Below, piece after piece: positions 6,446 through 55,837 of a DNA stretch of 60,000 nt. Source of the DNA: Lytechinus pictus (Eukaryota); the NCBI RefSeq assembly GCF_037042905.1, contig NC_087250.1:14510001-14570000 (forward strand), read 5' to 3'. The notes under the pieces are model-generated. The model did no database searches. It was not told the DNA's origin and saw only the letters and a list, made by a program, of their open reading frames with translations. The translations under genes were made by a program, and so were the position numbers. Position 1 is the first letter of the stretch; the number at the start of each line of letters is the position of its first letter.

Positions 6446-9400
6446 GTTCACAAATCGGCATCGAAGAGTAGTCAAGAAAGCTGCGGCAGCTCTCATTGCA
6501 GAAGGAACAAACGCATGCGGACAAAGTCAGGGAAGAAGCACCATGAAGAAGAGCAAAGGAAGTCTTCTTCATCCTCAGAGAAACTCGGTGATCGACGCCG
6601 TTCACTAACCTCTGATGAATCGAGATCGAGACGGACAGGCGACGATAACAAATCAAGGCATCGGTCTGAGTCTAAAGGAACCCGGGCCGACGACGAAGGT
6701 TCATGGCGCAAGAGATCACCACCCGCAGGATCGTCTTCGACGAAGGGAGCCCATGGATCTTCACGACACCACACCAAAGACAGTAGAGAAAGTAGAGATA
6801 TGAGTGGAAGCGGGAAAACAGATCAGCAGCAAAGACATAAAACGTTAGATAAGAAATCCGTTGATCATCCCATTAAGGAAGAAGCCACTACCAGTAAGCT
6901 GGACCAAAGTGTCAAGGGATCGGAAGACATTTTCGATTTTGCATCAGATATCTTTAAGGAAGGCGAACGAAAATGCGCGAAAGGCGTCAAATCGAGTTCA
7001 GCATCCAGGACAGAAGTCAAGAAAGATGCTCGATCACATCGTTTGCTTAAGCAGACTGATGATCGGAGAAAGAAAGAGTATCTTGGATACCAGCCAACAT
7101 ATGTTCATAAGCTCTACTCTTACGGAATCGACAACAAGGGGAAGAAGGAACCGCAGAAATCTGGACCGAGCAAGAAGGATGAGGAGATGATGTTCAGGAA
7201 AAGAGCGGTGTATATGATGCACTTGGAAGAAGAGCGAAAGAGGAAAGAAAAAGCAGAGAAAGAAGCTGAAAAGAGAGGACTCTCAAAATCACTTGAAAAC
7301 AATATGAAAGATGTGAATGAAAAGCTTGAAGAAGCTTTGAAGGGGAGGACGAGCACCCCTGATTTACAGCAGATCAATGAAACTGAGAGGAGGGAGACAA
7401 TGGTTACAGAAACAACTCGTTTGCTGCAAGACATGGAAGCAGCTCTGCCGGATGATTGTGAAAGAGAGGCAGTCCCCCAAAGTGCCAAGAAGGGAAGGAG
7501 CTCAGAGGGTTGTGGCTGGACCGGTCCCGATGTACATCATTTTTCTGAAGCAATGAAGGGATGTTCTACGTCAAATAAGCATGACGGTGGTAAACCGACA
7601 AACTTCAGCAGTGGCAATCCTGATCCAGAGAGAATGGATACTTCTGCTGACCAGACCACGGCAAAGATTAACACTGAAGACGCCCAAGATGAGACGGGGG
7701 AAGAAGAAATCTGGAGCTTTGAAAATAGTTCTTCTTCGTGCGATACTTCTGATGGGAAGAAAGGATCAGCAAATATAAATACAGTAAGCAACCATTGCGA
7801 TGATATGAATGAAGTTGGTATGTCTACAGAATCTGGTGAAGGACATGCAGAAAGCCGGGCTGCAAGAGATGACAGACTGTATGAATCTAACTCGAATGAT
7901 GCAAAAAGGGAAGGAGAGTCACATGGAAGACACAACGGTCTTCCTCCAGTGATATCCAATCTTCATCAGAAGGATAACGGGAGGGTTTTAGCTGCATCGC
8001 GGAAGGAACATGTCATTCGCATTTCCCCTGAAACTGTTTGCAGTAAGATTCAATTGTCAATGACTGACAAAGAGAAAACCGTGAATACACAGCAATTGGA
8101 GCAGAGTGATTTAGTGCGTGAATGTCCTGATACTTTAGCGGCAGAGATTGCAGATGTGCAGGAAGCTGGTGTAAAGAAGTTATTAACCGGAATTGCAGAA
8201 TGCAAAAAGGAAATGATGCCACAGAAAGGTCAACTTGATGTACCAATATCGCGTGTTGAAACACTCCATAGTGGGCCCCATGATATTCCTGGTGTATGCA
8301 AGAAAATAGAGCCGGGGATTCCCTTTGAAACCGAAGTCACTATATTTGATCCTTCAGAGTTTCCCGCTTCAACAAAAGACATTTCCAGCGTGACACATGC
8401 TAATAAAGTCGACATAAGTATGTCATCATCGGGACATACAGAAACGGAAGCAAAGGAGAACGTGCATCAGACTACGGATCCTGAAATACCATTGACAAAA
8501 TCAAACTCTGTGCCTAGACGTTATGGTACTCCTATGCAATTGCAGAGAACGGATCCAGTGGATATATTGCAAAGTGATGCGATCGCCTCTAGCCATTCTT
8601 CGTCTACAAAATTGGCACCAAGTCAACAATATACCCGAATTGCACCTGCCAAGACAGTCAAAGCGACACCGACATATGTTCTATCCCCTGCACCAGGTTA
8701 TGTCCAACTCACGCCACAACAGACTTTAATTATGACGTCGTCTGCTAACGTTACACCAACAAGGAATGTGTTACATGTGATTGGAAATAAAAATCAAGGT
8801 ATGATTCAGACGATTGAAAATAACAGTGTCTGTCTACAAAGGCAACCAAGACCCATAGATGTGAAAGGACCAACGATGCAGATTCCTCATGGAGATGGAT
8901 CTGTTGTCAGTCAGGTAAATAATGCTGCTTGTCTATCAGTTCCCCCTTTGGTCGTTTTGCCAAACAACGTCCTTCATGGGGTCAAAGGCCAACAAGGACA
9001 AAATATGAACTTTGTCGGTTATGACTTTATTGGTACTCAAATTGCAGGTAGAACTGCTTCTAAATCGGATTATCAACGCGACATGGATCGAACGATGTGC
9101 CTTGATCAAAGACGCAACACAAGCAGTCAAGCTCAAAAAGAAGTTTTCATGTTAGGAACCGATGGAGGAACCCAATCGACGAAGTTAGTACATACTGAAA
9201 CAGCAGCTTTGTCCTCCACGCCACAAGGGCTGCTGGGATACATCAATGTTCCGGTGATCAAAGACGACCAAGGACGTTTGGTGATGATTCTTCCTAATGA
9301 GAAAGGAATCATGGGATCGAACCAGGCAAAAACATTTGAAGTTGGTAATGTGTCTTCAAATCAGACTAAGATGGGCTCAAATGTACCAATGGTTGATCAG

Positions 9401-12400
9401 GTTTCTAAACAAGTACAGCAAGCCTTTTCAACGAATGTGTCGATTGAAACATCCAGACTCCAACAGCCTTCCATATTGCGGCAGGATCAGGACATGGCTC
9501 ATACCACAGCGCAATTACAAAAGAACGCTAGGACCTTGGTTCCTCGTACTTCACTTGTAACCTCAAATGAGGGAACTTCCAAGTCTACAATTGCAGAAAT
9601 ACGGGCAGCAAGCACATCATCTGTCACTTCAAATGCTAATGTCTCTGAAGATAGTAAGCAGAAGATTGATGACAGTCACGGCAAGAGCTCATCCATTAAG
9701 CCCAAAGATACTCTAGAAAAGGGTGAAGAATGTAAAAAAGACCATGGATCACTCAATAGTAAGAGTGTTGATGAGTTACGAGTTCGTCAGAAAGCCGTTA
9801 CTTCTAAACTCAAAGAACTGAGGAGTGTTAGAGTATTGATTGCCAAACATGGTCGAATGGAAGAAATAGAATGCGTTAGGATGGTAGAACGATTGAAACA
9901 AGTCGAAGATCTCTTCTTTCGGCAACTGATTGCTACTTCAAAGGAACTTGATGATAGGCTGAGTAATGCGCAGCAAGGTGTCAAAAGAGATGCCAAAGTG
10001 GTATCTACATATAACTCTGTAAAGGGTAAAGGAGTTAGAGAATCAAATTTGACAGATTCAAATATGCCATCTTCGGGGAGTGTCGCCAACAAGATGAAAC
10101 GATCCGATGAGACTGTTGATAAATTACTCAACACCGCTAATCTCCTACGCAATTGTATTAACGCAATGGCAAAGAAGAGACATGGAAGACCTGAAAGGAT
10201 AAATGAAAACACTTCCATTCAGAACGGAGAATTACGCTGTGATGCAGGACGATGTCAAAAAGCTGCAGAGGCCAAGAATAAATCAAAAGGAAATGGAATG
10301 GAAGAGCGGAATTCAGAAACACTGAAGGACCATGAGACCCCACATGGAAGTTCAACCACGACGGTGTCGACGGACCTAGGGTGTGACTTGAGTAACGGGT
10401 CACCCGAAGGAGAGCAGTACCACTTACAGCCACCTGATACAAATGCAGAAGCCTCAACCGAAAAGATTGTTCTGAGATTGCAAAGGGTGCGGAACAGAGA
10501 AGATTCCTCCTCAGCATCAGTGGAGGGCATCCAAAGTAAACACTCACCCCACAGTAACGGTATCAGAAAGGAGGTAGACACATTACTGTTGCAAGAAAAG
10601 TCCTGCAATTCACTTGGGTGCTACATGAGGAACGTGAATAAAGCAGATTCCAGTGGAAACTTTCATAATGAGAGTAATAGTCCTGAAACTAATAGGAAAG
10701 TCAACAGAAGCAAAAAACCAACTGAGGTCATGACGTCAGAAAGTAAGTTCGGATGTTCTAAAGAATCATCAAATAGCAGCGGAAAATATGTTACGAGCAA
10801 AACATGCAACAGAGATGACACTAGCACTGGATCAAGAAACGAGGCACAGAAGGGCTCCCAGATAGAAAAGAAACATGCCGTATTCACTGGACCAACGAAG
10901 GAGCAAGTCCAAGAAGAAGATAGGCGAGAAAGAGAAATGGTTAAAGAAGCGTGGAATCGGGTGTTTCCAAGGTCTTCTGTGAAAGATCCTTGCAGCAATT
11001 ACATAGAGAGCTCCAGTTCAAGTGAAAGTGAGCAACACACTAGTTGTACAAGTGAAAAGGGAGAAAAACTTCGAAATACTGGTAAGGACATACATAGGCA
11101 GATAAAGCATGTTTATGGAAATCCAGTTATCCGAGGAAACCTCGCAAGTATTGGTAACATCAATGTCACCAGGCAGGTTGGGGGAAGTTCAGAAACGAAG
11201 TTTCAGTGGCTGCTAAAGCAACTACAGAAGAAAAGGAACGGAGGGTCACAGGTGAAACAGAAGAATCAGCTAAGAATGCAGATGCCTTTCGATACAAACA
11301 GTGAAGATGGCAGAGAATATGTATCTATGGTTTCAAGAGGTGTTCAAACTCGCAAAAGTAGAATCACCAGCAATGACACCGGAATCGGCTCCCGTAAAGA
11401 ATTCATGACAGGTCAGGTAAAGGTAGATGAAAATAAAGAAAATTCTCTTCCTACTTGCCTCTCTCATTTTAACCATAATTCTTCGTCGGACAATCAGAAC
11501 TGCCAGACGAAAAAAAGAGGACGGGAATCGACAGGAAGTAGCGGGAAACCACTTGAGAAACTACCTCGGATACGATCACCCACACTCAACGTCGAATCAA
11601 AAGGGGAGATTAATCAGATGGATGATATACAAGATCTGATCTCCTTGCGAGAAGAAGTCTTATCACGTCAATCCAGTTCTAGTGAGGGCACTGTTGAGTA
11701 TTGCGACAACTTGATATCTGTAGAGGAAAACTTCCGACAGCTCAAGCCTGTGGAAAAAGAGAAGAAAAAGTTTCGGAGCACTGGGACAATGACAGCCCCA
11801 ACAACGGGAGACAAGTCGTTTATGAAGCCAAGTAAAGCCAGCAGTAGTCGCAAGTTTGCAACTAAGACACGCGGTCATGGAACTTATGGCTGGTGCAAGA
11901 AAAGAGTCGTACGGAAGATTTCAAAGTCTAAAGGAAAAAAGGGAACCAAAGTGTCAACAGCTAAAGGCAAAGTTAAATCAAAGGTGGCATCTTCCAAGAA
12001 GAATGATTTTGTTCTTATATCAGATGATTCGTTAGAAGGGCAGTCAGAAGAGGAAAGTCCAGAGAAGGAAATAATCCCCCAAAAGACAAGAAGGAATACT
12101 CTCGCGTCATTATCTGCCCGACTTTGGGACGAGTGTTACTGGTCTACGATAAATGACACTAGTAATCACGATGTAAGTGCGGCAAAGAGTATCCTGCCAT
12201 CTAATAACAGTCCTCCTACAACTAGAAAAACAGGATTGGAATCGAAGATGCTAGGACTATGGAGTGATCTTCTGAGATACTCTGGGAATCGCCACGATGT
12301 TGACACTTTACCCGTTACTTTAGAAGACCTTGACAAGCTGGATCTACCACCAGCAATTGCCAGTTCCATGAAGATACTTCTTGAAGGATATGATATGGTG

Positions 12401-12905
12401 AAGCAGGGATCAAGTCTTACCAATGAAGACTCAAAATCAAGCATTGACCCTCAGGTCGAATCAATCCTCAATGAAAACAACTCTGCTGTAATACTTCAGA
12501 TGACGAACAACGAGTCACCCTTCGAAGAAGAAGGAAGAACAGATGATAAAGAAAGCACAACTGACACCTCACCAAGCTATGACGAAGAGAGTCATGTATC
12601 TTCAAGCACTTGGGAAGCATCGGTGAGCACTGAATTCTCATTAGAAACCTTGACGTCACATAGCGCAAACACAGTTGGATCTGGTCCCTCCTACCACTCT
12701 TCCTCGACGACAGCATCTCCACCATCCCTAAGCACTGAAGATGGATATATCCCAGCGGAAGAACCTGAGAGAAACCTTAGACGGTGGCCCACGAGGATGG
12801 AACTTGCATCAGCGAATTACCTTACTGACGCAATCTCCCCTGACATTTCAGCAGATGTCATGAACAGGAACGACCCACACGATGAAGGGGACAGTGGGCG
12901 ATCGG
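6446..12905 (+). CDS. Exon 2 (6460 nt) of the uncharacterised ~2503-aa protein, Ser/Lys/Glu-rich and low complexity
   Basis: Polypyrimidine tract plus ACTAG|GTT acceptor, in frame with the 2136-codon ORF 6515-12925. Donor TCG G|GTAAAT at 12905/12906 (phase 1). No domain recognised. Confidence 0.85.
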
Positions 12906-13390
12906 GTAAATATTATATTTGTTAACGTGTGCAAAATAAGCTGTGATCTATTTATCAAAGAATCAGCAACAATTACAGTCACTTAATTGTCAATTATATT
13001 TGTAAAATGATTAATCAAAAGGCAGTTCAAGACAACTATATTAATATGCTATGGTCCATCAGTCAAGTATGTCAGTACCTATATTAGTTGAAATGGCGTC
13101 AGAGAATGTCGGACAAGTAGTGGAATCAAAAACATGTATTCCTTTGAGTATGTTTATCAAATAAGCATATAATTCAAAAGAATCACCAAGTCAATTAAAT
13201 AAAAGATATTTACCCAGTGAAATTCATTGCTTTGTACAAAACAATGTAAACTTCGACACAGATGTTGGAGCATTTCTGAACTAAATTCTCAAGTAAACTT
13301 GGGCTAAACACATTATTCGATCTGGCCAGAGTTATGGCGTAGACCGGTAGGAGGGTATTGGCATATTTTTTTTTTCTAATCGATAACCAG

Positions 13391-14223
13391 GTAGCGAAAG
13401 GGCAGACTCTGTGGCGGTAGGAACGTCGACAGGCTGGCAGATAAGTGGCGCAGGAGACCTCAGGGAGCCAAGGATGTTAACTGCACCCAAGGCAACTGCC
13501 AGGAACAGGAGACGACAGAACAGGGTTATGAGCTGGCCAACCATAATCCATGAAGAAGAGGATCCTGATGACGACATTCCTCTGGCCAAGCTCATTGAGA
13601 TGGAGAGATTGAAGAGACTTCAACAAGAGGCTGTAGGAAATGACCATCCTCTTGAGACACTGTTGAAGGTGGCCAACAAGGACAATAATATGGAGACGAG
13701 TCCGTCCTCTCCGGAGTCGGATCTTCCAGGTCCATTCCTCCTTATTCCTTCGCGACTGAGACAAATTTCATTAGACTGCCCCGTCCCAGGGACAGCTGCT
13801 GAGGACAAGCAGCAGGATGCAGCAGTATCGAAGCGAAATGATGGCACCAAAGGTAGTGAGCGTTGCGAAACAGCGGAAGCAGATGGTCAGTGTATAGACT
13901 ATTCCAATGACATTCATTCAAGGCAACAGGAGGAACACAAAGATATGGACGAACAGAGAGATTTGAACATGTCACAGAGTTCAGTTACTTTGAAGAAATC
14001 TGGTAAATTCCTGTATGGAGACTCTAAGAAGGGCAAATCCCTGGTGAAGAAACAGAATCCTACATCGAAAGTAGTAGTGCAAGACCTCTCTTCGAATTCC
14101 AGTGAGGCTTCCAAGCCGTGTGGTAGACGGTTTGTAGTAAGTTGCTCTCCAGATACAGATGCACTGTCAAACGGGAACCACTTGTACTACAGAAACGATT
14201 CAAGTCCTGATATATTTGATTGA
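13391..14223 (+). CDS. Last coding exon of the uncharacterised large protein
   Basis: T-tract plus AACCAG|GT acceptor. Phase 1 joins the 12905 donor in frame with ORF 13411-14223, ending at TGA. Spliced total 7512 nt = 2504 codons. Confidence 0.8.
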
Positions 14224-27361: not shown

Positions 27362-27394
27362 TCATCGATAGTTTTCTTCGTAGAATGTTGGATG
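27362..27394 (-). CDS. PLEKHF2: PLEKHF putative terminal coding exon (HPTFYEENYR*)
   Basis: Strong acceptor TTCTCTCTTTCATTACCTTTCAG|CAT, phase 0 matching exon 8. Gives 801 nt = 266 aa plus stop. From memory, invertebrate Phafins carry a similar PxFY after the acidic tract. Confidence 0.68.
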   Translation of the reverse strand, partial: HPTFYEENYR

Positions 27395-30361: not shown

Positions 30362-33300
30362 CAATTCAATTCAATTCATTTATTTGACATCCTTTAAAAA
30401 CATATGTACAAGTATACAACAACAAAGGAGTACAATAATTTAAATCACAGTATAAGCGATAAAAAATTGTCAAAATATAAAAGAAATGAAAATAAAATGT
30501 AGCGGATGTAGGAAGTCAGAAAGGCCATTGACCTGTCAAAGCCGACTCCCTTGATTACTACATTATGGTACGATTAAAAACACAAATAGAATAGTGGCCA
30601 AAAAAACAAACAAACAAAACAGACACGAACACATCGAAATCAACCCCCCCCCCCTCAGATAGGCAGTTGGAATTATTAACTATAAGTAGACAGTTGGTTT
30701 TGTTTCAATCTACGTTTCAATGATGAGAATGTAACAGATAATTTTAAAGTATCGGGTAAATTATTCCACAAGTTTGGTCCTTTATAACGAATTGTAGATT
30801 TAGAAAGCGTATAACGAAAGAACGGTATATATAATTTGTTTGAATTTCTCGTTACATAATTATTTATACTGCTATTAAATATAAAATAAGTATTAAAACA
30901 AGATGGAAAAATAGAATTTAAATTGAAATATTTGTACATAAATAAAATAATTTGCGAATCATAAAGTTCATTTAGCTTTAAAAGTTTTAGCTTAAAAAAT
31001 AAAATCTGTGTATGAGCTCTAAAAAAGGAATTTGTTATTACCCTTATTGCACGTTTTTGAATCACATATATCCTTTGTAATAAATATGATGCACAGCCAC
31101 CCCAGATAATCAGACAATAGTTCAAATGTGGCAAGATCAAGGTATTATATATATTTACAAGGATGCGAAATGGTAAAACTTTTTTGACTCTGTTCAATAC
31201 TCCAATTACTCTAGAAATCTTTTTACAAATGTAATCTATATGATATTTCCATGTCATATTTTCATCAAGAATTACTCCTAAGAATTTTACTTGATTAACC
31301 TGCTTTATTGCTTTATTGGCAATTGTTATTCGTATTGCACTGTTATCAATATGTTTATTATGTGTTTTAAAAATAACATAATTTGTTTTTTCGAAATTAA
31401 TAAAAAGTTTATTGGCAAGAAACCATCGTTGAATTTTGGCTATTTCAGTATTTAATATAAAATTCATATTAAAAGGATCATTACCAGATAAAAAATTTAT
31501 ATACAATAAAAATAATAATGGGCCTAGATTAGATCCCTGAGGTACACCCATTTGTATATTGCTATATGCTGATGTATTATTGCCAATGCTCACATATTGC
31601 TTACGATTTAATAAATAACTTTTCAATAATAACAATGGAGTCCCTCTAATTCCATAAAAATACAATTTATGGAATAAAATATTAAAATCAATACAATCAA
31701 AAGCTTTTGATAGATCTAAAAATATACTGATTAAAAATTCATTGCACTCAAAAGCCTGAGATATGCTATCGACGAATTTTAAAAGTGCATGGCAAGTAGT
31801 ATGGTTTTTTCTAAAACCAAATTGCTTTTCGAATAAAATGTTATTATTTTCAATAACAAGTGGAATGCCTCTGGCCGTCTCACCTGCATCACGCGATTCA
31901 ATATAGCAGCAGTGCTGATTTTGAAAACTACTATAACTCGTACGAGATGTTCAGTGATACTTGGTTACTCGTATTTCCACGTTTTATGAATTAGACCAAT
32001 ACACTTATAGAGATATGATGGCAATTCAACAAATACCCCCAACGTGGCCAAAGTTCTTTGACCTTACATGACCTTTGACCTTGATCATGTGACCTGAAAC
32101 TCGCACAGGATGTTCAGTGATACTTGATTACTCTTATGTCCAAGTTTTATGAACTAGACCAACACACTTTCAAATTTATGGCTGTAATTCAACAAATACC
32201 CCAATTTGGCCAAAGTTCATTGACCCTAAATGACCTTTGACCTTGATCATGTGACCTGAAACTTGCACAGGATGTTCAGTAATACTTGATTACTATTATG
32301 TCCAAGTTTCATGAATCAGATCCATAAACTTTCAAAGTTATGATGGTAATTCAACAGATACCCCCAATTCGGCCAAAGTTCATTGACCCTAAATGACCTT
32401 TGACCTTGGTCATGTGTCGTGAAACTCATGCAGGATGTTCAGTGATACTTGATTAACCTTATGTATAAGTTTCATGAACTAGGTCCATATATTTTCTAAT
32501 TTATGATGACATTTCAAAAACTTAACCTTAGGTTAAGATTTTGATGTTGATTCCCCCAACATGGTCTAAGTTCATTGACCCTAAATGACCTTTGACCTTG
32601 GTCATGTGACATGAAACTCAGGCAGGATGTTCAGTAATACTTGATTAACCTTATGGCCAAGTTTCATGAACTAGGTCCATATACTTTCTAAGTTATGCTG
32701 TCATTTCAAAAACTTAACCTCAGGTTAAGATTTGGTGTTGACGCCGCCGCCGCCGCCGCCGTCGCCGTCGGAAAAGCGGCGCCTATAGTCTCACTCTGCT
32801 ATGCAGGTGAGACAAAAACAATCAACTTATTATATATAATTTTTTCAAAGATCTTACTGAAAATTGATAATACTGATATAGGTCTATAATTATTTAGTGA
32901 AGAGGTATTACCACTTTTAAAAACCGGAGTTACTCGGGCGATTTTGAGTGCATCAGGAAATATACCACGTTCTATGGCCAAATTAATTATATTACAAAGA
33001 GAAGTCAAGACTATATGAATAGATTTCTTCAAGACTTTGGGGTGAATGTAATCATACCCTGGACCTTTACTTACATCAAGTTTCAGGACAACGTTTAAAA
33101 TATCCCTCTCCGTAGCAGGATGTAAAAACAACGACTTTTCAAAATGACCAGTCATACACTCTCTAAATGAATTTTCTGTGCTATTACTGTTGATGTTTTC
33201 TCTTAGCTTCACACCTACTGAAGTGAAATGGTCATTGAACTCATTGACTATTTCCTGTTGATCAGTTACTGTACTACCATTTATTTCTAACCCTCTTACA

Positions 33301-33757
33301 ATTGTTTTCGATATATTTCTATTTAAAGTCTGGTTTATAACATTCCATGTCCCTTTCATATTACCTTGTAGTTTCGCAAATTTCGTGTGAAAATACTCGC
33401 GTTTCTTTTCTCTTATCAAGTTACCGAGATCATTACGGCACCTTTTATAGGCGTTTTCACATGTATCAGATTTACTCTTCAGGTATTTTTGGTACAAAGC
33501 ATGTTTTCGTTTACTTAGGTTTATGATATCTTTCGTTATCCATGGTTTTCTTTTTGTGTTTACTTTCTTTTTCTTTATCTTTGCACTAAAATATCGATTA
33601 TAAACACCTCTATACAGTTTCAGAAAACAATCATACCTTATGTTTACATTGTCAATTGCGTTCAAAACATCCCAATTTACTTTGCTTAGTTCACTACAAA
33701 ATAGGTTTATATTTTCATCACTGTAATCTATTTTTTCAATTTCAATATCTTTTTCCT
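30362..33757 (-). mobile_element. Degenerate 5'-truncated LINE (L2/Crack-like RT), split by an insertion at 31855-32816
   Basis: ORFs 32799-33665 (KPWIT, NYRPISVL) and 30676-31855 (QFGFR, DLSKAFD, GVPQGSNLGP). (TTGAA)n 3' tail at about 30361-30378. Confidence 0.9.
31855..32816 (-). mobile_element. Helentron-associated non-autonomous element (HINE/DINE-1/pearl-like) with an internal tandem array
   Basis: Asymmetric subterminal inverted repeats GTCTCACCTGCAT / ATGCAGGTGAGAC, terminal hairpin GTCTCAC...GTGAGAC, (GCC)n microsatellite, about five ~170-190-bp units containing ATGACCTTTGACCTTG, inserted in an A/T run. Confidence 0.75.
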
Positions 33758-34360
33758 TTAAACCCGAGTTTAAGTTAAACCTGTTATCAGAATACGGGCC
33801 TTTGTTTTTATAATATTTTCACTAATTAAAATAGTCTTATCAAATGTTTTGTATATGTCACCGAAGAACACATAATGTGATGCGTAGAACACAAAAAAAA
33901 AACAGAATTGGCATTTGATAAAAGGAAAACCTTGGGGTTTCTATAATAGCCAGACATCACACCAAAATGTCTAAACTGAATTTAAAATTCACTCGGCATA
34001 TTAATTGGTAATACTCTAAGTCCCCTGTTATCTTGACAGTCCTAGGTGGAAACTAGATTAAATGTGTAATGGGAATGCTCGAAGCGGTCTTGGAAGCGAT
34101 CTTCAAAACCAGTTTGGAAAACCACCTTGTGATGTGTTTTTCATGACCTCTTTGCCTCGTAAAGCGTAGGTGAGGACGAAACCGTTCTTCAGGAAGAGAT
34201 CTCCGCAACAATGTTTGGCACGCTACTCCACGCACAGTGTGTAGAATGTCTACACTGCGATTTCAAATTTTGTGTGAAACATGTCACCCCACTGAGAGCG
34301 TTCCGTAGCAACAAGACCGCTTCACGTAAAGCGGTTTTCAAAACCACTTTCGGGTGATCT

Positions 34361-34738: not shown

Positions 34739-34836
34739 CACATCTTCTGCTTGTGTATTCCTATTGAATCCATCATTGTCTTCATCATCATCGTCATCGT
34801 CATCAGAGTCTTGATCGAGAGGGGCAGCATTCCGTG
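34739..34836 (-). CDS. PLEKHF2: PLEKHF exon 8, poly-Asp tail (RNAAPLDQDSDDDDDDDEDNDGFNRNTQAEDV)
   Basis: TTTTTTCCAG acceptor (phase 1) and GTG|GTATGT donor (phase 0). The poly-D tail is a Phafin hallmark. Confidence 0.88.
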
Positions 34837-36029
34837 CTGGAAAAAAGTAAGAAGAAGTAGGTATTGTTGTAAAGCAAAGCTTGAGCATGGGCATGTTTTT
34901 TAATAATAATAATAATCCGCTTTTATATAGCGCTTAATACATCTGAACGACGTGTCTAAGCGCTTTACATATATATTATTACCCCGGTCATCGGATTCAA
35001 TCAGTCATTCCTGCACACAATGTATGCACATCCTCCACTCTCTGGGTAGTATTTTTTTATACAAATATATATTAATAAAGGGCAAAAAAGAAAAGGGATT
35101 AACCTACACAGTGGAAAAGAAATTTCATATCTTAATCCCGAGGAGCGTGTCATGGAATGATTTGTCGGGCATTTCATCCGACAAGTCCTGTTTCATCCAG
35201 CAGTTGCCACAGTTAAACAGTGCTTCTCAGCCAATCAAAATCAAGGAAAGTTGTTTGATCTGACAGTTTCTAAGAAAACAAATACTGATGAACCGCTCCC
35301 CAGTGACTGAAAACACTCTCTCCTAGCCATTCTCTGGTTCAGTGTACTCCAACGAAATACATCAAAATAAATGATTCGAGATACAAGGGGATACAGATTT
35401 TACATCTTTGTTTCGGCTAGATGCGGGACAGAAAATAGTCACCCTCCCTTCCTTTCTCTTGTTCTCTTGTTGTTGGTCGTAAAAGTCACATACCCTGAAA
35501 GGGCTTTGACTCCAGATAAAGGGAGTCAGATTTTAACATCCTAATCAAGGGACGGATAATACTTTCTCCCAGCATTTCTCTCATTCGGTGTCCTTTGATA
35601 AAAGGTATTGCTAGTAATAATCACAGACCGTATGAAAAACTTCAAAAAGAATTGCTCTTTTTTTTTACTTGTACGATTTTGATAAAATGTACTTCATAAA
35701 AAAATTGGTATTAACATTTTCTTCAGATGTATTTTATCATTTTTAAATTTCTTTCACATGTATTCAATGTTTTGTGTTTCATTGTTCATTCAGTGGAAAT
35801 TTTTGCTGATACAATTCTGATCATAAATAACATTAAATGATTAAAACGCTTAATCGGGGAAAGTAAAAATAATGATGCATCAATGAATTCAGATGCAACA
35901 TTATACCCGAGGGACAGAAAACATTTTACTCTCTCCCCATCCTCTTTTGTTTTGTTCTTCTCCAATGAAAGTTGCCGGTAGCAGTAAGCACATATTCTAG
36001 CAAAGACTCCTGATTCAATATGAAGGATT

Positions 36030-36505: not shown

Positions 36506-36662
36506 TCTGTCCCAGCCTTTCTCTCGTCCCGTTCTTCTCCAATGACAGTTGTTGGTAGCAGTAATCACAAACCCTGACGGGGGCTTCGGACTGAAGGGGT
36601 AGAAGAAACTTCTTAGAAGAGCAAGATTGGCAAACCACTTTACCACACTTCCGACAATGGTG
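36506..36662 (-). CDS. PLEKHF2: PLEKHF exon 7, FYVE core ([52 protein letters not shown])
   Basis: Completes RRHHCR across the splice junction and contains the RVC motif. CTCAG acceptor, A|GTAAGT donor (phase 1). Confidence 0.95.
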
Positions 36663-36799: not shown

Positions 36800-37210
36800 T
36801 TCATGGGCGAAATAGAATCTGAAATAGAAATACTCCAAAAATTCATTTCGCCCAATTGATCGTGGGCCTGGCATCCACACCACAGCACTAGATCGATGTT
36901 GCCCTATCCGTTAAATCATTGAATGCCAAACAGGGTAGCAATAACTCCAATCTTAATACCTCGGTCACATTTGCTCTACGGCGGCCGTACGGCGAGTCGA
37001 AAACAGCCGTTTTATTCATTTTTATTCAAACCACCTATAATATAGCTGGTACAAAAAATGTTAAAACGGCTGTTTTCGTCTCGCCGTACGGCCGCCGTAG
37101 AGCAAATGTGACCGAGGTATTAACATCTTTTGGTCTGACGCAGTCGGGGCTTGAACTCCCGACCTTCTGGTTATGAGACAGACACTCTACCAACTGAGTC
37201 AACACACTGG
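36800..37210 (-). mobile_element. tRNA-derived SINE of the same family as 40140-40395, split by a MITE
   Basis: Head TTGACTCAGTTGGTAGAGTG...GTTCAAGCCC. The body aligns to the 40 kb copy on both sides of the insert. Confidence 0.75.
36957..37119. mobile_element. Short hairpin MITE inserted in a SINE
   Basis: Perfect ~38-bp TIR TACCTCGGTCACATTTGCTCTACGGCGGCCGTACGGCGAG with TTAA on both sides. Confidence 0.85.
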
Positions 37211-37369: not shown

Positions 37370-38180
37370 ATGAAGTTGTAAACCTCTTCTAACATAAATT
37401 TTAAGATGATCTTACCTGTCTGAACAGGGTAGTAAACCTCTCTTTACAAAGGCTACATGTTAAGGTTATCGTATATCTTACCCGTCTGAACACGATAGTA
37501 AACCTCTTATTACATAAACATTCATTTTTATCTTACCCATCTGAACAAAGTGGTTAACCTCTCATTGCATAAATATTAATATTATCTATATCTTACCCAT
37601 CTGAACAAAGTAGTAAACTTCTTATCTACATAAATATTAATATTTTCTTAACCATCTAACAGGTTAGTAAAACTTCTGCTTTATTACAGAAATGTTACGG
37701 TTACCTTATGATCCATCTGAATAGGGTAGTAAGATTCTTCACTTAAATGTTACTATTTCATTTTTACTACTCTGTGCATTGCCGTAAAACTATTTCAACA
37801 TAAATGTTAAGATTATCTTTACCCATCTGAACAGGGTGGTAAACCTCTTATTACATAAATGTTATAAAGATTATCTTATCTGTCTGAATAGAGCAGTAAA
37901 CCTCTCATTACAGAAATGTTAAAGGCTATCTTCTCCATCTGAAGAAGTAAACTTCTTCGCTTAAATGTAACTTTATTTTTACTTGTCTGTACACGGTTGT
38001 AAAACTCTTTTAACATAAATGTTAAGATTGTCTTGCCCGTCTGAACAGGGTGGTAAACCTCTTATTACATACATGTTAAGATAATCTTACCCGTCTGAAC
38101 AGGGTGGTAAACCTCTTATTATATAAATGTTAACATCATCTTACCCGTCTGAACAGGGTGGTAAACCTCTTATTACACAG
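37370..38180 (-). repeat. ~54-bp tandem array derived from the exon 6 3' end and splice donor
   Basis: About 13-14 copies of CTTACCCGTCTGAACAGGGTGGTAAACCTCTTATTACA. The last copy is the exon itself. Confidence 0.9.
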
Positions 38181-38248
38181 CATACAATGGGGGGCATCAT
38201 GATCAGGAACCCAGACTGGGCTTAGCTCCGTGGCAGGCTTCTTCCCAC
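38145..38248 (-). CDS. PLEKHF2: PLEKHF exon 6, start of FYVE domain (GKKPATELSPVWVPDHDAPHCMLCNKRFTTLFRR)
   Basis: WxxD motif and first CxxC. TTTCAG acceptor, CGG|GTAAGA donor. Confidence 0.95.
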
Positions 38249-39389: not shown

Positions 39390-39515
39390 TTTTTGCTAGC
39401 AGATCTGAGATGCATTTGTTGATGTGTGCCATCCATTCTGATTTCTCTGTTGCCGTGGCAGCATACACTGTGAATGATTTGGTTGCACTGATAATCTGCC
39501 AACCATTTTTTAAAT
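39390..39515 (-). CDS. PLEKHF2: PLEKHF exon 5, end of PH domain (LKNGWQIISATKSFTVYAATATEKSEWMAHINKCISDLLAK)
   Basis: TTTTCAG acceptor and GTAAGT donor, phase 1 to 1. Contains the PH C-terminal helix EKSEWM. Confidence 0.95.
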
Positions 39516-40139: not shown

Positions 40140-40395
40140 TTAATCCATATTTTATGTTATTGTTCGAAATAGACATGAAATATTCCGAAAGTTTGCTTAG
40201 CCCGATTGACCGTGGGCCAAGCAGCCACTGTGCAGCGCCAGATCGACGAGGCTCTATCTCTTTAATCGTTGAACGCCAAATAGGGTAGCAGCAACTCCCA
40301 TCTTTTTACGTCCTTTGGTCTGACGCGTCCGGGGTTCGAACTCCCGACCTCCCGGTTGTGAGACGGACGCTCTACCAACTGAGCCAACACACCCG
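40140..40395 (-). mobile_element. tRNA-derived SINE
   Basis: A box TGGCTCAGTTGG and B box GTTCGAACCC, followed by a non-tRNA body. Second copy at about 36800-37210. Confidence 0.8.
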
Positions 40396-40784
40396 GTGCA
40401 ACCTTTCATTTGAACATTGTGAATTAAAATCGTGCTCAGCCCATATAGGCAAAGCCTTTAATATTTGGATACTTATGTCTGAACTGCTATCAACAGTAAC
40501 CAAAAGTTCCCAGATATACATTTATTTGCCATTCACTTTTTGTGCACTGAACTAGAATTTCTACTTCTTGTTCAGGTCTACTCCTTTTGGTAGTGCTATT
40601 CGAGTCGGATCCGCTTTCACACCCGGTACTCAATATCTTCTTACATTTCGAGGAGGAATAAAATTTGTGAAACTTGCTACTTGTGTTATCCCTATACTAT
40701 TCTTAATTTCAAGCAACCGGAAGTGACTGGGTCACACAATAAGGAAATTTTGGTTATTCTCGATAGCAAGAATTGTATGTACTT

Positions 40785-41442: not shown

Positions 41443-41506
41443 TGCCTTCATCCTCAACTGATTTTAACCTTACATCCTCCAAGGGCAATAAATGTTGTTT
41501 GTTGTA
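41443..41506 (-). CDS. PLEKHF2: PLEKHF exon 4 (YNKQHLLPLEDVRLKSVEDEG)
   Basis: TTTTCAG acceptor and GTAAGT donor, phase 0 to 1. Confidence 0.93.
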
Positions 41507-42540: not shown

Positions 42541-42678
42541 CTTCTTTTTACTGAGTACAATATTGCCGTAAACCAAGGCATCGTTGAAGAGGAAGAATTG
42601 ACGAGGCTTGCATCGTTTCCGGCAGTTCTTTGTGAGGACGCCCTCGCCGACCAACACTCGCCCTGGAACAGCTAGGGG
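42541..42678 (-). CDS. PLEKHF2: PLEKHF exon 3, start of PH domain (PLAVPGRVLVGEGVLTKNCRKRCKPRQFFLFNDALVYGNIVLSKKK)
   Basis: GCAG acceptor and GTAAAT donor, 46 codons, near-identical to the PLEKHF2 PH domain. Confidence 0.95.
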
Positions 42679-46176: not shown

Positions 46177-46480
46177 GGAGGTGTCATAGTGTAGTGGTTC
46201 AGTCACTTGACTCTTGAACCAAGGGTCGAGGGTTCGAATCCCACCCAGCGCTAATGTCCTTTGGTCAGGCACTTATCCACGTTTGTCACTCTCTCCACCC
46301 AGGTGTTAAATGGGTACCCGGTAGAACGTGAACATCAATGTGATTAGAATGCCATATGTGCGCTGATAAACGGTTGCCTGGCCACAATACTCCCCAGGGA
46401 GTGGAGATGGTGCACTTTACGTGTGAAACACTGATGGATCCCATGACGGGGGTAATGGTAATTACAATGTAAAGTATTGT
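46177..46480 (+). mobile_element. tRNA-derived SINE of a second family
   Basis: A box TAGTGTAGTGG, B box GGTTCGAATCC, central CCACCCAGGTGTTAAATGGGTACC. A related 3' fragment with an (ATT)n tail lies on - at about 34905-35052. Confidence 0.75.
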
Positions 46481-49913: not shown

Positions 49914-49978
49914 CTGGCCCGAGCCTCCGAAGCATAATTCCACTTGCTCAATCCGTTTACGATTGGCTTCACTGTTTA
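49914..49978 (-). CDS. PLEKHF2: PLEKHF exon 2 (VNSEANRKRIEQVELCFGGSGQ)
   Basis: AG/GT flanks, phase 1 to 0. Matches PLEKHF2 NSEANTRRISIVENCFGAAGQ. Confidence 0.92.
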
Positions 49979-50945
49979 CTGTACATGTACAAAACAAAAC
50001 ATAAATAAAAGATTAAAACATTTGATATTTCTTTCGTTCAGACTGATACGAACATTTATTGTTTCCATCATCTATAATAAAAAAACAAACTTCTTCTAGT
50101 TCTACACTAGCTCTGTGAATTGCAGAGACTGTGGTCTTGTGGACATACTTTCAAACTAAATTGAACCAAGAATGAGCAGGTCAAGGGTTCAATTATTGAG
50201 CTAGCAAGCCTAGCATCCATAATTCTATTTTATTTTTATAGTACAAATAATTCTTCCTCTTCGGCTCTTCCTCATTTTTTCCTTGTTAGTTACTTTTTAT
50301 TCTTCTGTCATGCTTGTTCCTACTTTTCTTCTCTTTCTTTTGTTCTGCCCGACATTCTCTGCCTCACTCAACAGACTCAATCATACACTGACTCAAGTCA
50401 ACTTTCATCTCGACTCGGTCACATTTTTTAAAATTACAAAACCTGTGAGTGTGATTCACATGCATCTCTCAAAGTCTCATTCTCAATCACCATTGTGGCA
50501 TTGATTCTTGTCATATTTATGTCAAATTCTAGGATTTATAAAAATAATTTAGGCAAAAAATTATGGTAGGGCCGAAAACAATTGATCATGGTAGTCCCAT
50601 CGTGGAAACAAAACCCTGCAATGTCCCCAAATATGACACGCAAACTATTTGCTTCGTAAACGCCTCCTTTCTCTCAACGGGTTAATCACAATATACACGC
50701 CGAAGTGGGCGGCGTAGATTTTCTGGGAGAACGGGTCGCACGCGCAATAAAATCGTGATCACCGTCAATCTCACTCAATTTTGACCACCCCAAATCAACA
50801 CTTTCCGAATTAAAATGAACAATCAAAACAATTATTCATTATCTGTATTTTTTACTCTTTCTCTTAAAAGTTAAGTATGGTGCCGGAAATAGGAAGGAGG
50901 GTTAGAAATAGTGAAACAAACTATCGGAAGTAAAGCTTTACTCAC

Positions 50946-50961
50946 CCAACCGATCTACCAT
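50946..50961 (-). CDS. PLEKHF2: Phafin/PLEKHF coding exon 1 (MVDRL)
   Basis: AAAC ATG GTA GAT CGG TTG G|GTGAGT. MVDRL is the N-terminus of vertebrate PLEKHF2. Confidence 0.9.
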
Positions 50962-51360
50962 GTTTATAATGTGCAAGAAAAAGTTGAAATAACCTTTGAT
51001 CCAGTCACATGACTCAATTTTTGTAAAGCATTTATCTGAACTCAATCCCGAATATAATCATTTAAACTTGTATATAGTGATTCATAAATCAAAAATAATC
51101 TTAGAAAAACGAGAAACGTTGCATACTTTTGTGATTACAGCTCACATGAGTATTTTTAATAGAAATAATTAGGAAATTGTCCCCATATTGTTATCGATAT
51201 CACTTCGATATCAACGTTGGATTATCGGATCACATGACGAGCGAAGCTGAAGAGCGAAAGACTTGAAAGAAAACCTGTTAATGCTTCAAAATCACCGTTC
51301 CTCCCAGCGGTTGTTCCAGTTTAGCATATTTTTTCACAAGGTTGTAATATTTTCGCCAAC
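50962..51360. promoter_or_regulatory. Bidirectional promoter between PLEKHF and RNASEK with three TCACATGA E-boxes and one TATCGATA
   Basis: Divergent ATGs at 50961 and 51361. GTCACATGAC 51004-51013, CTCACATGAG 51141-51150, ATCACATGAC 51229-51238, TATCGATA 51192-51199. Confidence 0.75.
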
Positions 51361-51432
51361 ATGGTAAAGATCTGCGGACCAAAATGTTCAACATGTTGCT
51401 CTTTGCTGAGTATATGGGGAGTAGTTATGTTG
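51361..51432 (+). CDS. RNASEK: RNASEK (ribonuclease kappa / V-ATPase subunit f) exon 1 (MVKICGPKCSTCCSLLSIWGVVML)
   Basis: GCCAACATGG start context. CGPK...LSIWGVVML family signature. TTG|GTAAGT donor. Confidence 0.93.
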
Positions 51433-51972: not shown

Positions 51973-54230
51973 CTAGTCAAGCTGGAGACTTATCAATTTG
52001 TTATTAAATATTTGTGAGTTGGTTATAGAAATTAAGTCATATGGGAGGGTATTCCAGTCCCTTGCCGTATTAGGGAAGAAGGATTTCTTGTAGTAATTAG
52101 TTCTTGAGAATGGTATTTCGAGGGTCAGGGAGTTGAATTTCCTTGTACATGCTGCGTTCGGATCCCTTCTGTTGAAGCTCAGGTGCTCTTGAAGCGGTAG
52201 GCTGACATTATTATGGATTATCTTATGCATCATGGTCAGTCTGCTCACCTGCCTTCTATGTTGAAGGGTGGGTAATTCCATAGCTTTGAGCATGGCTGTA
52301 ACAGAACTCTCCTGGCTGTAGTTGTTGGTGACAAACCGCGCAGCACGTCTCTGGACTGCCTCCACCTTAAGGATGTTACTTTTAGTGTGGGGATCCCACA
52401 CAGAGCTGCAGTACTCAACATGTGGGCGAACGAGGCTTTTGTATGCTTGTAGCTTTACTTTCTGGGAAGCGTTTCCAAGATTACGACGGAGGAAGCCTAT
52501 CATGCTATTAGCTTTGGAAACTGCTTTATCAACCTGTGTGTTCCATTTCATATCCGATGATAGAGTTACTCCAAGGTATCTGTGCTGGTTGGCAGTCTGC
52601 AGCGTCTGGCCAGCTAGCTTATATGAAGATTCTATTTGATTCTTACAACGGGAAAATCTGAGAACACTACATTTTTCTGGTTTAAAGGACATTAGCCATG
52701 TATGAGCCCATTTCTCAAGTAGTTTTAAGTCCTTCTGCAGAATCTTACAGTCGACGGAGGACGCAATGGGTCGGTGTATAATGCAGTCGTCAGCAAAAAG
52801 ACGCACTTTAGACTGCAGGCCCACCGGTAAGTCGTTGATGTATAGCAGGAAGAAGAGTGGACCGAGGACCGTGCCCTGGGGCACGCCTGACCGCACTCTG
52901 ACTGGCTTGGAGCTTATCCCTTGGAGAACCACTGACTGTTGTCTGCAAGTAAGGAATGATGTTATCCAGTTATATAGAGAGCCAGATATGCCGTAATGTT
53001 GGAGTTTGAGTAGAAGACGCTTGTGAGGAACAGTATCGAATGCTTTGGCAAAGTCGAGTATCACTGCATCTACTTGCTTGTTGTGTTCATTCGCCTCCCA
53101 GATATGATGAACTGTAGTGAGGAGTTGTGTTTCACAGGATCTCTTGGCTCGAAATCCATGTTGCGAGTCGTCTAGGGCATTGAACTTCTCTAAGTGATTG
53201 ATAATATGACTGTAAATAACATGTTCAACTATTTTGCAGCAAACTGAGGTCAGCGATACCGGCCTGTAGTTGGCTGGATCAGTCCGGCTACCTTTTTTGT
53301 AGATTGCGGTAACGTTGGCTCGGGTCCAGGCTACCGGCAATCTGCCAGACTGTATGCTCAGGTTACATATCTTGGTTAGGATAGGTGCAATTTCATCAGC
53401 ACAGTTACGTAGGATAAAAGGGTGTATGGCATCGGGGCCAGGTGCCTTGGATGGTGAGAGCTTGTGGAGAAGCTTCAGAACTCCAGCCTCATCCACAACC
53501 AGCGGAGCGATGTCCGGGAGTTTGTCGACTTTAGGGATTGGTATGTTTGATGAAGGATGAGCATTTTCGTCTGTGAAGACGGACTTGTATTGGTTACTGA
53601 GCGCTTCTGCCTTGTCAGCCGCTGAACTAACCAGATGGTTCCCATTCCAAAGGGATGAGATACCCGATGTATCTCGACGTCTGTTCTTGATGAATGACCA
53701 GAACCGTTTAGGGTTAGAATGAAGAGCTTCGAATATAGAAGTAGACAAATATTCCTGCTCGGCCTTTCTGTTTTGTTTTTGAAATTCTTTCCTAAGTGAT
53801 CGATAGCGGGTCCAAGATTTGTGTTGATTAGTAGACTTGGCTGTATAGAAAGCTCGCTGTTTCCTTCTGGACAGCTTCTTCAGCGGTCTCGACATCCATG
53901 GCAAATTGAACCTTGAACTCTTAAGTGCGGAAGGTATGAAATCATCCATTGCTTTGATCGTTGCTGATTGGAAGATTTGCCAGTTACTTTCGAGAGAGTT
54001 GTTATCAGCTTCTGCCAAAAAAGTGGTTGCAAAGTTCTGTAATCTGGTCTTTAGACCGTCAATGTCAGCTTTATGAAATTTATACACCTTACGGCGTATT
54101 GACTTTTGAAAGATGGGTTTGAGGCTGGCAATTGATGTTAATATGAAGTGGTCCGAGATGCCTGGGTGTGTCTTGACTTCACTGAAGACATGTGGATTAG
54201 AGACCAACAAAAGTTGGAGTATGTTCATAA
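51973..54230 (-). mobile_element. 5'-truncated LINE (CR1/L2-group-like) ORF2 in the RNASEK intron, antisense to the host
   Basis: Unbroken ORF with endonuclease C-terminus (SDH), KAPGPD, NYRPVSLT, QHGFR, LDFAKAFD, GVPQGTVLGP, LFADD and C-terminal FFPNTARDWNTLP. Confidence 0.92.
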
Positions 54231-55627
54231 CGCAATGCACTTTGGTTTGGTGAGCATGGTTAACTTCATTAGCCAACTCAATTTTTTTTTTCTCTTTCCT
54301 CTGTAAGTTCAAGTCACTTATTTGTGGGGGCTTGCTTGGCCTTCAGTCATGTTGGTAAATCATGGTATTGGTCACTCACACGTATTGCGAGGTTAGTATT
54401 AGTATACTAACCACGAACCGCGTTTGGCAGTGGATTTCTAACTAGTGGGTCGCGCGTGCTGGGATCTCACTTCTTGGGTCCACAACACACGACTTCTATG
54501 GCTTGATTTTTCTGTGCGCGGCGGCATGTAATGAACCCTTGGGTGGGTATTGGTAGGCAGGGAAAGAGGGCGTGTGAAGGAGGACTCATTTATTTTTTTT
54601 TTGTATGGGATGTGCGGCTGTGGCTTTCTTTTTTTCTTTGTATTGTTTTTGTATTATGTTTCTTACTCTTTCTTTCAGCAGTGTTCAGTGAATTAATGGA
54701 AACACGAATGACCAGTTTAATTGATTTGTTTATGAATTACTTGTATTTTACTGATGCCTACATGTATGTATGAAGTATTTTGAATGAAGTTATTTGTCAG
54801 TTGTTTGTATTTAGGTATTTCACTGCTGTTTGTAAATGTCACTAAGGATCAATAAAACTTAACAATACTTTAAAAAAACTAATTTTAACTTATTTTTTGC
54901 CCATTTAGCAAACTTATTTCAGCTGAGTCTTTGCCCAAATTCACCCTCCATTCCAATAATGACTAACGGTTAGATCTTACAGCTCCATTTCGACATCATC
55001 ATTCAAACTCAAACCAAAGACAAAATTTGAACAGTCAGACGTTTTCTTTGCTGAAGTTTTGATTTTAGACTGAATTAAGCGATCAAATTCCTCCATATGT
55101 GTGTGTACATGTATTTGCTTGTATTTTTAAAAAAATAGTGCAACTTCAGTCCGCAATATCAGGGACGAAGTTCATTAGGAGTTTTCTTCACCATCAAGTT
55201 GGAAGCTGATATAGAGTTGTTCATCAAAATAATTTTGGGCTAAAAAAAATGAGTGCAAATTTGTAACCACAAAGTTAGGCATTTGGGTGGATATGAAAAG
55301 TCTGAAATTCAGTTAGCGCTGGTGGGATGACCCTCTTTCTGACATGCCTCCACCCTTTATATTCGCAAATATGATCCATGCGTTCTGTTGTCTATTTCTG
55401 TTAACCCTAGCTTTCTTTTTTTTTTTCAGGGGCTACGTTTTACGACTTCTGCACAAATCTGCAACACTGGTTAAGCTTTAACAAATCGCAGTGAATGTGG
55501 ATTTTCCCGGGCTGTTTTGGGGGCAGAATTGCCCTCGGCTCCCATCCAATTGTTTTCCCTGAACCTTAATACTACCTTAATTCATAAATCATTGTATCTT
55601 CTTTTTTTTCAATTTATCTCCTGACAG

Positions 55628-55837
55628 CTCTTGATGGGTGTTTTCTTCCGGATAAATGCCTTGGCCTTCATTGAAGATGTCAGTCTCGAAGAGGACTTCA
55701 CGAAAGAGGATCTGGACCAAGCGTACACAAGTGTCTCAAATAATTGCTTCATCGCGGCGGGAATCTACGTCCTGTTTGCCGGTTTTTCCATCTATCAGTA
55801 TTCCGTCAACAAGAGACTACAGTACCAAGTTGACTAA
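55628..55837 (+). CDS. RNASEK: RNASEK exon 2 (LLMGVFFRINALAFIEDV...YTSVSNNCFIAAGIYVLFAGFSIYQYSVNKRLQYQVD*)
   Basis: Polypyrimidine tract plus GACAG acceptor, phase 0. IEDV and NCFIAAG.Y motifs. 93 aa with two hydrophobic segments. Confidence 0.93.
   Translation, partial: LLMGVFFRINALAFIEDVSLEEDFTKEDLDQAYTSVSNNCFIAAGIYVLFAGFSIYQYSVNKRLQYQVD

Follow-up and report, generated by a model that had tools for sequence, protein, structure and literature searches.

A probably ancient head-to-head pair of phafin and RNASEK genes with a dCLEAR/M-box, a candidate MiT/TFE site, at the RNASEK start

Genes at the locus

The window analyzed here, a 60,000-nucleotide stretch of the genome of the sea urchin Lytechinus pictus, contains a PLEKHF/phafin gene whose minus-strand ATG is at 50961 and an RNASEK gene whose plus-strand ATG is at 51361; the two are divergent, arranged head-to-head, and separated by 399 bp. 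This intergenic spacer (50962..51360, 33% GC) comprises the shared divergent promoter and both 5' UTRs. The two genes had been named in an earlier, sequence-only reading of this DNA, and both identifications are borne out by spliced gene models identical to L. pictus RefSeq proteins and by the Pfam matches.

The PLEKHF/phafin gene consists of 9 minus-strand coding exons between 50961 and 27362, and all of its splice sites are canonical. Coding exon 1 (50946..50961) encodes MVDRL plus 1 nt and ends at the GTGAGT donor of a phase-1 intron, the position of which is identical in 19 metagenome loci. It is followed by exon 2 (49914..49978), exon 3 (42541..42678), in which the PH domain begins, exon 4 (41443..41506), exon 5 (39390..39515), in which the PH domain ends, exon 6 (38145..38248), where the FYVE domain begins, exon 7 (36506..36662), which contains the FYVE domain (PF01363, E 2.7e-14), exon 8 (34739..34836), which encodes a poly-Asp tail, and the last coding exon with the stop codon (27362..27394). 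The product of exons 1-8 is identical at 256/256 residues to the L. pictus PLEKHF2-like protein XP_063957065.1 and has the hallmarks of a phafin, namely, a PH domain, a FYVE domain (both above the Pfam cut-off) and the poly-Asp tail. An older phafin model from S. purpuratus (protein P0139) differs at the N-terminus, the likely cause being failure to detect the 16-nt first exon.

RNASEK has two coding exons on the plus strand, 51361..51432, which precedes a phase-0 intron placed as in insect and lophotrochozoan loci, and 55628..55837, which includes the stop codon and is joined to position 51432 by RNA reads. The predicted protein is identical at 93/93 residues to the L. pictus ribonuclease kappa-like protein XP_063957068.1; the Pfam model V-ATPase_su_f (PF23489) gives 44.2 bits against a cut-off of 27 when scored on protein P0129, which is identical at 93/93 residues, and 23.5 bits, under the cut-off, for exon 2 alone. 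RNASEK has been identified by cryo-EM as subunit f of the Vo sector of the V-ATPase (PMC7414150). Since both proteins match L. pictus RefSeq entries, both genes are already annotated.

Several repetitive elements are found within and around these genes. A 54-bp tandem array at 37474-38177 (12.7 copies) repeats the 3'-terminal sequence of PLEKHF exon 6 along with the splice donor of that exon, with perfect donor copies at 38096 and 37487; splicing at the next donor copy would reach a stop right past the normal exon end. Inspection by eye reveals that PLEKHF intron 7 (~35450-36020) contains degenerate copies of sequence from the 3' portion of exon 7 and from the region of its splice donor; a stop-free stretch there, at 35786-36028, resembles the end of the FYVE domain. 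Candidate tRNA-like SINE heads are likewise recognisable by eye in PLEKHF introns at ~40180-40400, ~36870-37210 and ~46180-46430. The RNASEK intron contains, in antisense, a LINE reverse-transcriptase ORF (51973..54342, minus strand; RVT_1, E 2.5e-33; 789 codons) that lies outside the promoter. Elsewhere in the window, two low-complexity open frames on the plus strand, of 2159 codons (6446-12925) and 278 codons (13387-14223), showed no Pfam match at E 0.01.

Boxes and transcript starts in the spacer

Within the spacer, the 8-mer TCACATGA occurs three times on the plus strand, at 51005, 51142 and 51230; both this observation and the divergent ATGs at 50961 and 51361 were correctly made in the sequence-only reading. 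Box 1 (GTCACATGAC, 51004..51013) is located 44 bp upstream of the PLEKHF ATG and has the flanks GTCAC..TGAC; box 2 (TCACATGA) occupies 51142..51149; and box 3 (TCACATGA, 51230..51237) lies 131 bp before the RNASEK ATG. All window boxes are of the asymmetric M-box form only. A palindrome, TATCGATA, at 51192..51199, which also occurs in bee-like loci, is presumably a DRE-like housekeeping motif. At least three boxes (TCACATGA, TCATGTGA or TCACGTGA) appeared in none of 3000 dinucleotide shuffles of the 399-bp spacer, and at least one in 2.8%; any complex 8-mer was present three times in a single one of 3000 mononucleotide shuffles. The early assignment of the motif as an M-box/CLEAR variant holds: TCACATGA/TCATGTGA equals the published dCLEAR/M-box of V-ATPase genes, which is enriched at -50 to +150 relative to the starts of fly V-ATPase genes and is conserved across insects (Lovero 2023, PMC10452791).

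For a close relative (organism B), DNA contigs from two runs, roughly 90-95% alike, span the spacer. When contig X5 of organism B is compared with 50652-51214, there are 28 substitutions and 2 gaps, none of which fall in box 1; this box is embedded in an 82-bp block free of changes (p=0.04 when anchored on box 1, 0.22 unanchored). Box 3 is likewise unaffected among the listed changes of organism B. At about 5% divergence, an 8-mer has a 65% chance of remaining intact, so the retention of boxes 1 and 3 is weak evidence. Box 2 is broken, by T51147A in both runs and additionally by G51148C in X5, which suggests that this box is dispensable or a recent copy, probably so on the basis of this comparison. 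The proposal that all three boxes are functional is thus narrowed: boxes 1 and 3 remain candidates, but box 2 drops out.

Transcript 5' ends were examined with raw reads from a stranded RNA run labelled as the same species, of which about 6% was used and 24 reads were aligned, supplemented by a second run. On the RNASEK strand, depth is 9-16 from bin 51248 to 51427, and 8 reads and 1 contig from the second run pass from 51432 into exon 2. Eight RNASEK reads carry unaligned 5' letters before 51249, the consensus of which consists of about 12 variant-allele letters after an adapter-like end; we take the letters ahead of the variant-allele stretch to be the end of an Illumina adapter. Once the loose letters are interpreted in this way, the 5' ends of these reads lie near 51236; the RNASEK contig from the second run has 49 unaligned letters before 51276 and thus reaches up to about 51227. 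The 5' ends at about 51227-51237, which come from raw reads and a contig rather than CAGE, place the RNASEK transcription start on box 3, so that this box falls in the part of the promoter that dCLEAR occupies in fly (about -50 to +150). In the RNA runs of the same species label, another allele is represented 3' of box 3 (51238-51305), differing at 51259 and 51305 and in the variant stretch before 51249. Box 3 itself contains an ATG that opens a 10-codon frame (51234-51266) with a stop before the RNASEK ATG; this would be an upstream ORF only for transcripts beginning before 51234.

Data on the phafin side are thin: one read covers ~50946-50975, its end near 50975 being deduced from bin depths, two read pairs map within intron 1 to the strand expected for the gene, and a contig of depth 2 begins at 50972. 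The furthest 5' ends of PLEKHF RNA (50972..50975, minus strand), from the one read and the one depth-2 contig, are a lower bound for the transcription start and lie, on these thin data, about 30 bp from box 1. Transcription runs outward on both strands, from about 51237-51249 on the RNASEK strand and, with few reads, from 50975 downward on the opposite strand, with divergent starts less than 1 kb apart, which is the layout of a bidirectional promoter. Among the RNA rows at the locus, bins 50996-51247 show no depth and no joints are listed; with the phafin side thinly covered, these rows contain no sign of distant 5' UTR exons. The suggestion of a compact promoter is accordingly supported by RNA 5' ends near both ATGs.

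Spread of the pair and the gene that the box follows

To place the locus in an evolutionary context, we scanned metagenomes with a 30-protein phafin alignment, which yielded 79 loci from the best 80 of 139 matches; 20 of the 79, which are genomic and have phafin exon 1 located, make up the comparison set. As identified with an RNASEK profile, RNASEK is encoded upstream of phafin on the opposite strand in six of these 20 loci (L040, L057, L056, L063, L065 and L067), which represent four lineages, two lophotrochozoan and two insect. In a quick tree, L040 and L057 belong to one clade among lophotrochozoans, and L056 falls near termite-like loci and a stick insect; L063, L065 and L067 are bee-like, and the tree groups L067 with bees and wasps. 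The spacers of the linked loci are 307, 314, 400 and 588-590 bp long, and the first-intron positions of both phafin and RNASEK are the same in the sea urchin as in these loci.

Accession numbers of phafin and RNASEK are consecutive in L. variegatus (XP_041466753.1/754.1), 3-12 apart in L. pictus and Diadema antillarum, 251 apart in D. setosum and 1359 apart in Apostichopus japonicus; in each of the last two species, the contigs of both genes have equal lengths. Consecutive numbers, which do not imply orientation or distance, are also found for the brachiopod Lingula anatina (XP_013397022.1/023.1, in RefSeq and EukProt), where each of the two records is on a contig of 471,628 bp. Adjacency is thus seen at the DNA level in an echinoderm, insects and a lophotrochozoan clade, and by accession order only in the brachiopod. 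The arrangement is disrupted in fly, human, copepods and branchiopods, as well as in an annelid-like locus pair. Fly RNAseK is on 2R, and rush lies beside sta, X-linked as implied by stocks. We take human RNASEK to be at 17p13 and hence unlinked to PLEKHF1 and PLEKHF2. The latter two genes map to 19q12 and 8q22, respectively (PMC10178739).

Ancestry is the simplest explanation for finding this divergent pair in lophotrochozoans and insects as well as in an echinoderm. From this distribution, the pair was probably inherited from the common ancestor of protostomes and deuterostomes, which lived over 550 million years ago. The gene order and the box, which the sequence-only reading had asked to see in other animals, are conserved far beyond echinoderms. 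A scan of prokaryote genome contigs produced no host-derived phafin loci. We found no earlier report of phafin-RNASEK linkage in a literature search judged mostly by titles and the beginnings of abstracts; the supplementary list of Irimia 2012 (795 groups) may contain the pair. In one unlinked arthropod locus (L050), phafin has another divergent upstream neighbour (1575-1934, minus strand) about 2.2 kb off, which we take to be of the MO25/CAB39 type from its appearance.

In all six linked loci, comprising four lineages, TCACATGA is present on the RNASEK strand 105-205 bp before the RNASEK ATG; the exact motif of the dCLEAR/CLEAR regulon (TCACATGA/TCATGTGA or TCACGTGA) is thus kept at orthologous RNASEK genes. 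Box 3 is the positional counterpart of this RNASEK-side box, so that motif, strand and distance class are alike in 5/5 lineages when the window is included, and all five boxes have the asymmetric CATG core. Across all 79 loci, boxes occur at a background rate of 0.05 per 400 bp, and the chance of at least one box per linked spacer is 1-6%. It is hence very improbable that the boxes are functionless 8-mers that arose by chance or came from repeats. There are observations of that kind in the window: TCACATGA is not enriched over its whole length (7 copies vs 3.8 expected, with 7 reached in 9 of 100 shuffles), three of the four copies beyond the spacer (32085, 32247 and 32602) lie inside a 163/192-bp tandem repeat (31935-32741), and box 2 is lost in the close relative. 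The recurrence at RNASEK in five lineages against such a low background, however, largely refutes a chance origin for box 3; for box 2, it may hold.

The motif cluster at 32085-32609 was considered as a regulatory parallel and rejected because it is a tandem repeat between two LINE-like ORFs. The 163/192-bp repeat, which has TCATGTGA in its units, breaks a LINE-like ORF at 30676-33818 and constitutes a repeat-borne source of M-boxes in the L. pictus genome.

As an unlinked control, we used the nine of 14 loci without RNASEK that have at least 1.3 kb upstream of phafin, which are copepod-like, branchiopod-like, annelid-like and unplaced and count as eight distinct loci (L073 and L074 were counted once); L038, L045, L053, L066 and L069, with only 104-603 bp upstream, were left out. 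Searched from -1000 to +300, none of the eight distinct unlinked phafin loci has a box, compared with 4/4 linked lineages (Fisher p=0.002, a value that overstates independence because the four lineages represent two clades). The 21 transcript-like phafin loci contain no box in 2477 bases of 5' UTR, which is uninformative on promoters. Among coral-like loci, a 7/8 CLEAR-like match is seen in L066 (~514) at -43 from the phafin ATG, with 556 bp of upstream sequence present, and short tandem TCATGTGA repeats occur in an intron of L060 (18-40).

A box on the phafin side is present in three of the five linked lineages: at -17 in L040, at -17 in L057, where it is a perfect TCACGTGA, and at -44 in the window (box 1); neither insect lineage has one. 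The shared orientation reported for the window copies is real but does not extend to the phafin-side box in general; the box of L040 reads toward phafin. The spacers of L040 and L057 align with a score of 135, barely exceeding that of shuffles (103±10, with a maximum of 130.5), and both boxes are among the best-kept blocks, even though the core of the phafin-side box changes between CATG and CGTG and its flanks have diverged. Retention of this box amid the divergence suggests, from the aligned sequences, constraint on it in that clade. The absence of the box from all eight unlinked phafin loci and of a phafin-side box from insects indicates that the conserved box is associated with RNASEK and not with the two genes jointly, as far as the loci compared here can tell. 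The idea of one conserved element serving both genes is not supported by the same observations. Because the pair is broken and the phafin-side box absent in several lineages, neither linkage nor phafin control appears to be essential.

A serious, albeit less likely, alternative is that the boxes serve RNASEK only and phafin is a bystander on an open housekeeping promoter; under this explanation, the linkage would last because a breakpoint is unlikely to fall within a short divergent spacer and breakage there would disrupt both core promoters. The boxless unlinked phafin loci and the insects with an RNASEK-side box alone speak for it, as do the fly RNAseK gene, which retains the box without phafin beside it, the frequent extra dCLEAR copies at V-ATPase genes (PMC10452791), and the silence of the sections at hand of a phafin review on TFEB, promoters and V-ATPase (PMC10178739). 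It does not readily account for a box that lies 10-17 bp from the start codon of phafin in L040 and L057 and 44-51 bp from it in the window, at about 300-350 bp from the RNASEK ATG, nor for the preservation of the phafin-side box in L040 and L057; furthermore, an enhancing effect on lysosomal acidification has been reported for mouse Phafin1 (PMC13285062).

The predicted factor, the mechanism and related systems

With regard to the factor that reads the boxes, MITF binds an M-box probe with a KD of 2.6 nM and a CLEAR probe with a KD of 0.9 nM (PMC6355916), and the M-box is described as bindable by MiT/TFE unlike other bHLH-zip factors (PMC6355916, PMC9363479). In sea urchins, Mitf is expressed in skeletogenic and pigment cells (PMC9363479; bioRxiv 10.1101/2025.08.12.669999); a 2022 review, in the parts available, states that no lysosomal role of Mitf has been reported in sea urchins or molluscs (PMC9363479). 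Another bHLH-zip factor such as USF could be the main reader of the boxes, in which case constitutive expression or repression would be expected instead of a starvation-inducible MiT/TFE response. USF2 binds CLEAR motifs (GTCACGTG) at mammalian lysosomal genes in competition with TFEB (PMC11436898), and box 1 has the GTCAC..TGAC flanks. We consider such a reader improbable given the asymmetric CATG core of all five RNASEK-side boxes, the described ability of MiT/TFE, unlike other bHLH-zip factors, to bind the M-box, and the identity of the 8-mer with the fly Mitf element (PMC10452791).

Taken together, these observations lead us to favor, with reasonable if far from full confidence, an ancient pair on a divergent promoter, with a dCLEAR/M-box at the RNASEK start that is a candidate MiT/TFE site. 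The PLEKHF-RNASEK pair would have been held on a divergent promoter of 300-600 bp since the protostome-deuterostome ancestor, with a single dCLEAR/M-box at the start of RNASEK as its conserved core; in the direction of RNASEK, this box reads TCACATGA. The protein most likely to bind it is an MiT/TFE factor (Mitf), which would raise RNASEK along with the other V-ATPase subunit genes. A second box, at the phafin end, occurs in the sea urchin as well as in one clade of lophotrochozoans, so the same factor probably raises phafin in both; box 2, the middle one, would be a recent, dispensable copy. That RNASEK is under MiT/TFE control is very likely, as an expected member of a known regulon. Co-regulation of phafin in the sea urchin is a plausible candidate on which the evidence is evenly balanced, and it would not be general. 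The phagocytic or macropinocytic cells that the sequence-only reading offered as an example of its setting are a speculative suggestion.

A stronger scenario, which we regard as doubtful, is that the bilaterian ancestor already had phafin, a PI3P-binding adaptor of endosomes and macropinosomes, joined to RNASEK by a single bidirectional promoter under MiT/TFE control, each start having its own box, and that this arrangement has persisted for over 550 million years because both proteins function in the same step as endosomes mature and acidify. Phafins bind PI3P and have roles in macropinocytosis and autophagy (PMC10178739). If this scenario is correct, phafin would be an unrecognised ancestral gene of the CLEAR network and a functional partner of the V-ATPase.

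Few animal gene pairs are adjacent across protostomes and deuterostomes, and fewer have an identifiable conserved site in the spacer. The pair described here offers a 300-400 bp test piece for the wiring of bidirectional promoters, adds echinoderms and lophotrochozoans to the range of the Mitf-V-ATPase element, and points to a phafin-V-ATPase link that is testable in a tractable sea urchin.

The closest known system is the dCLEAR/Mitf regulon of insect V-ATPase genes, for which Zhang 2015 and Bouché 2016 are reportedly the works cited. The likeness consists in the identical 8-mer (TCACATGA/TCATGTGA) near the start of the gene for a V-ATPase Vo component and in the fly RNAseK gene, where a dCLEAR-like motif overlaps the start, as box 3 does in the window. 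Control of RNAseK by Mitf has already been inferred computationally in Drosophila (2026, PMC13615687), and the RNASEK-Mitf part alone is therefore expected. What appears from the genomic comparison to be new is the head-to-head layout of phafin and RNASEK with the box across echinoderm, lophotrochozoan and insect lineages: the pair adds an echinoderm and lophotrochozoans to the regulon and puts the element in a divergent promoter whose other gene is not part of the V-ATPase. In the available text, Lovero 2023 contains neither RNASEK nor 'bidirectional', and PMC13615687 does not contain 'rush'.

The vertebrate CLEAR network (TFEB/TFE3/MITF; CLEAR TCACGTGA, M-box TCATGTGA; PMC6355916) similarly features a T-flanked E-box repeated near the starts of lysosomal genes, and the perfect TCACGTGA at the phafin end of L057 matches its CLEAR form; by contrast, the window has the asymmetric M-box form only. 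Finally, ancient 5'-5' gene pairs separated by short spacers have been described as a class, the CAMPs (Irimia 2012, PMC3514665), exemplified by Hspe1-Hspd1 with its bidirectional promoter; PLEKHF-RNASEK is not named in the main text of that study as available. The pair resembles the CAMPs in that unrelated genes are arranged 5'-5' across a spacer of less than 1 kb and are kept across phyla, and differs from them in that the PLEKHF-RNASEK spacer keeps a named transcription-factor site and the pair was lost in fly and human.
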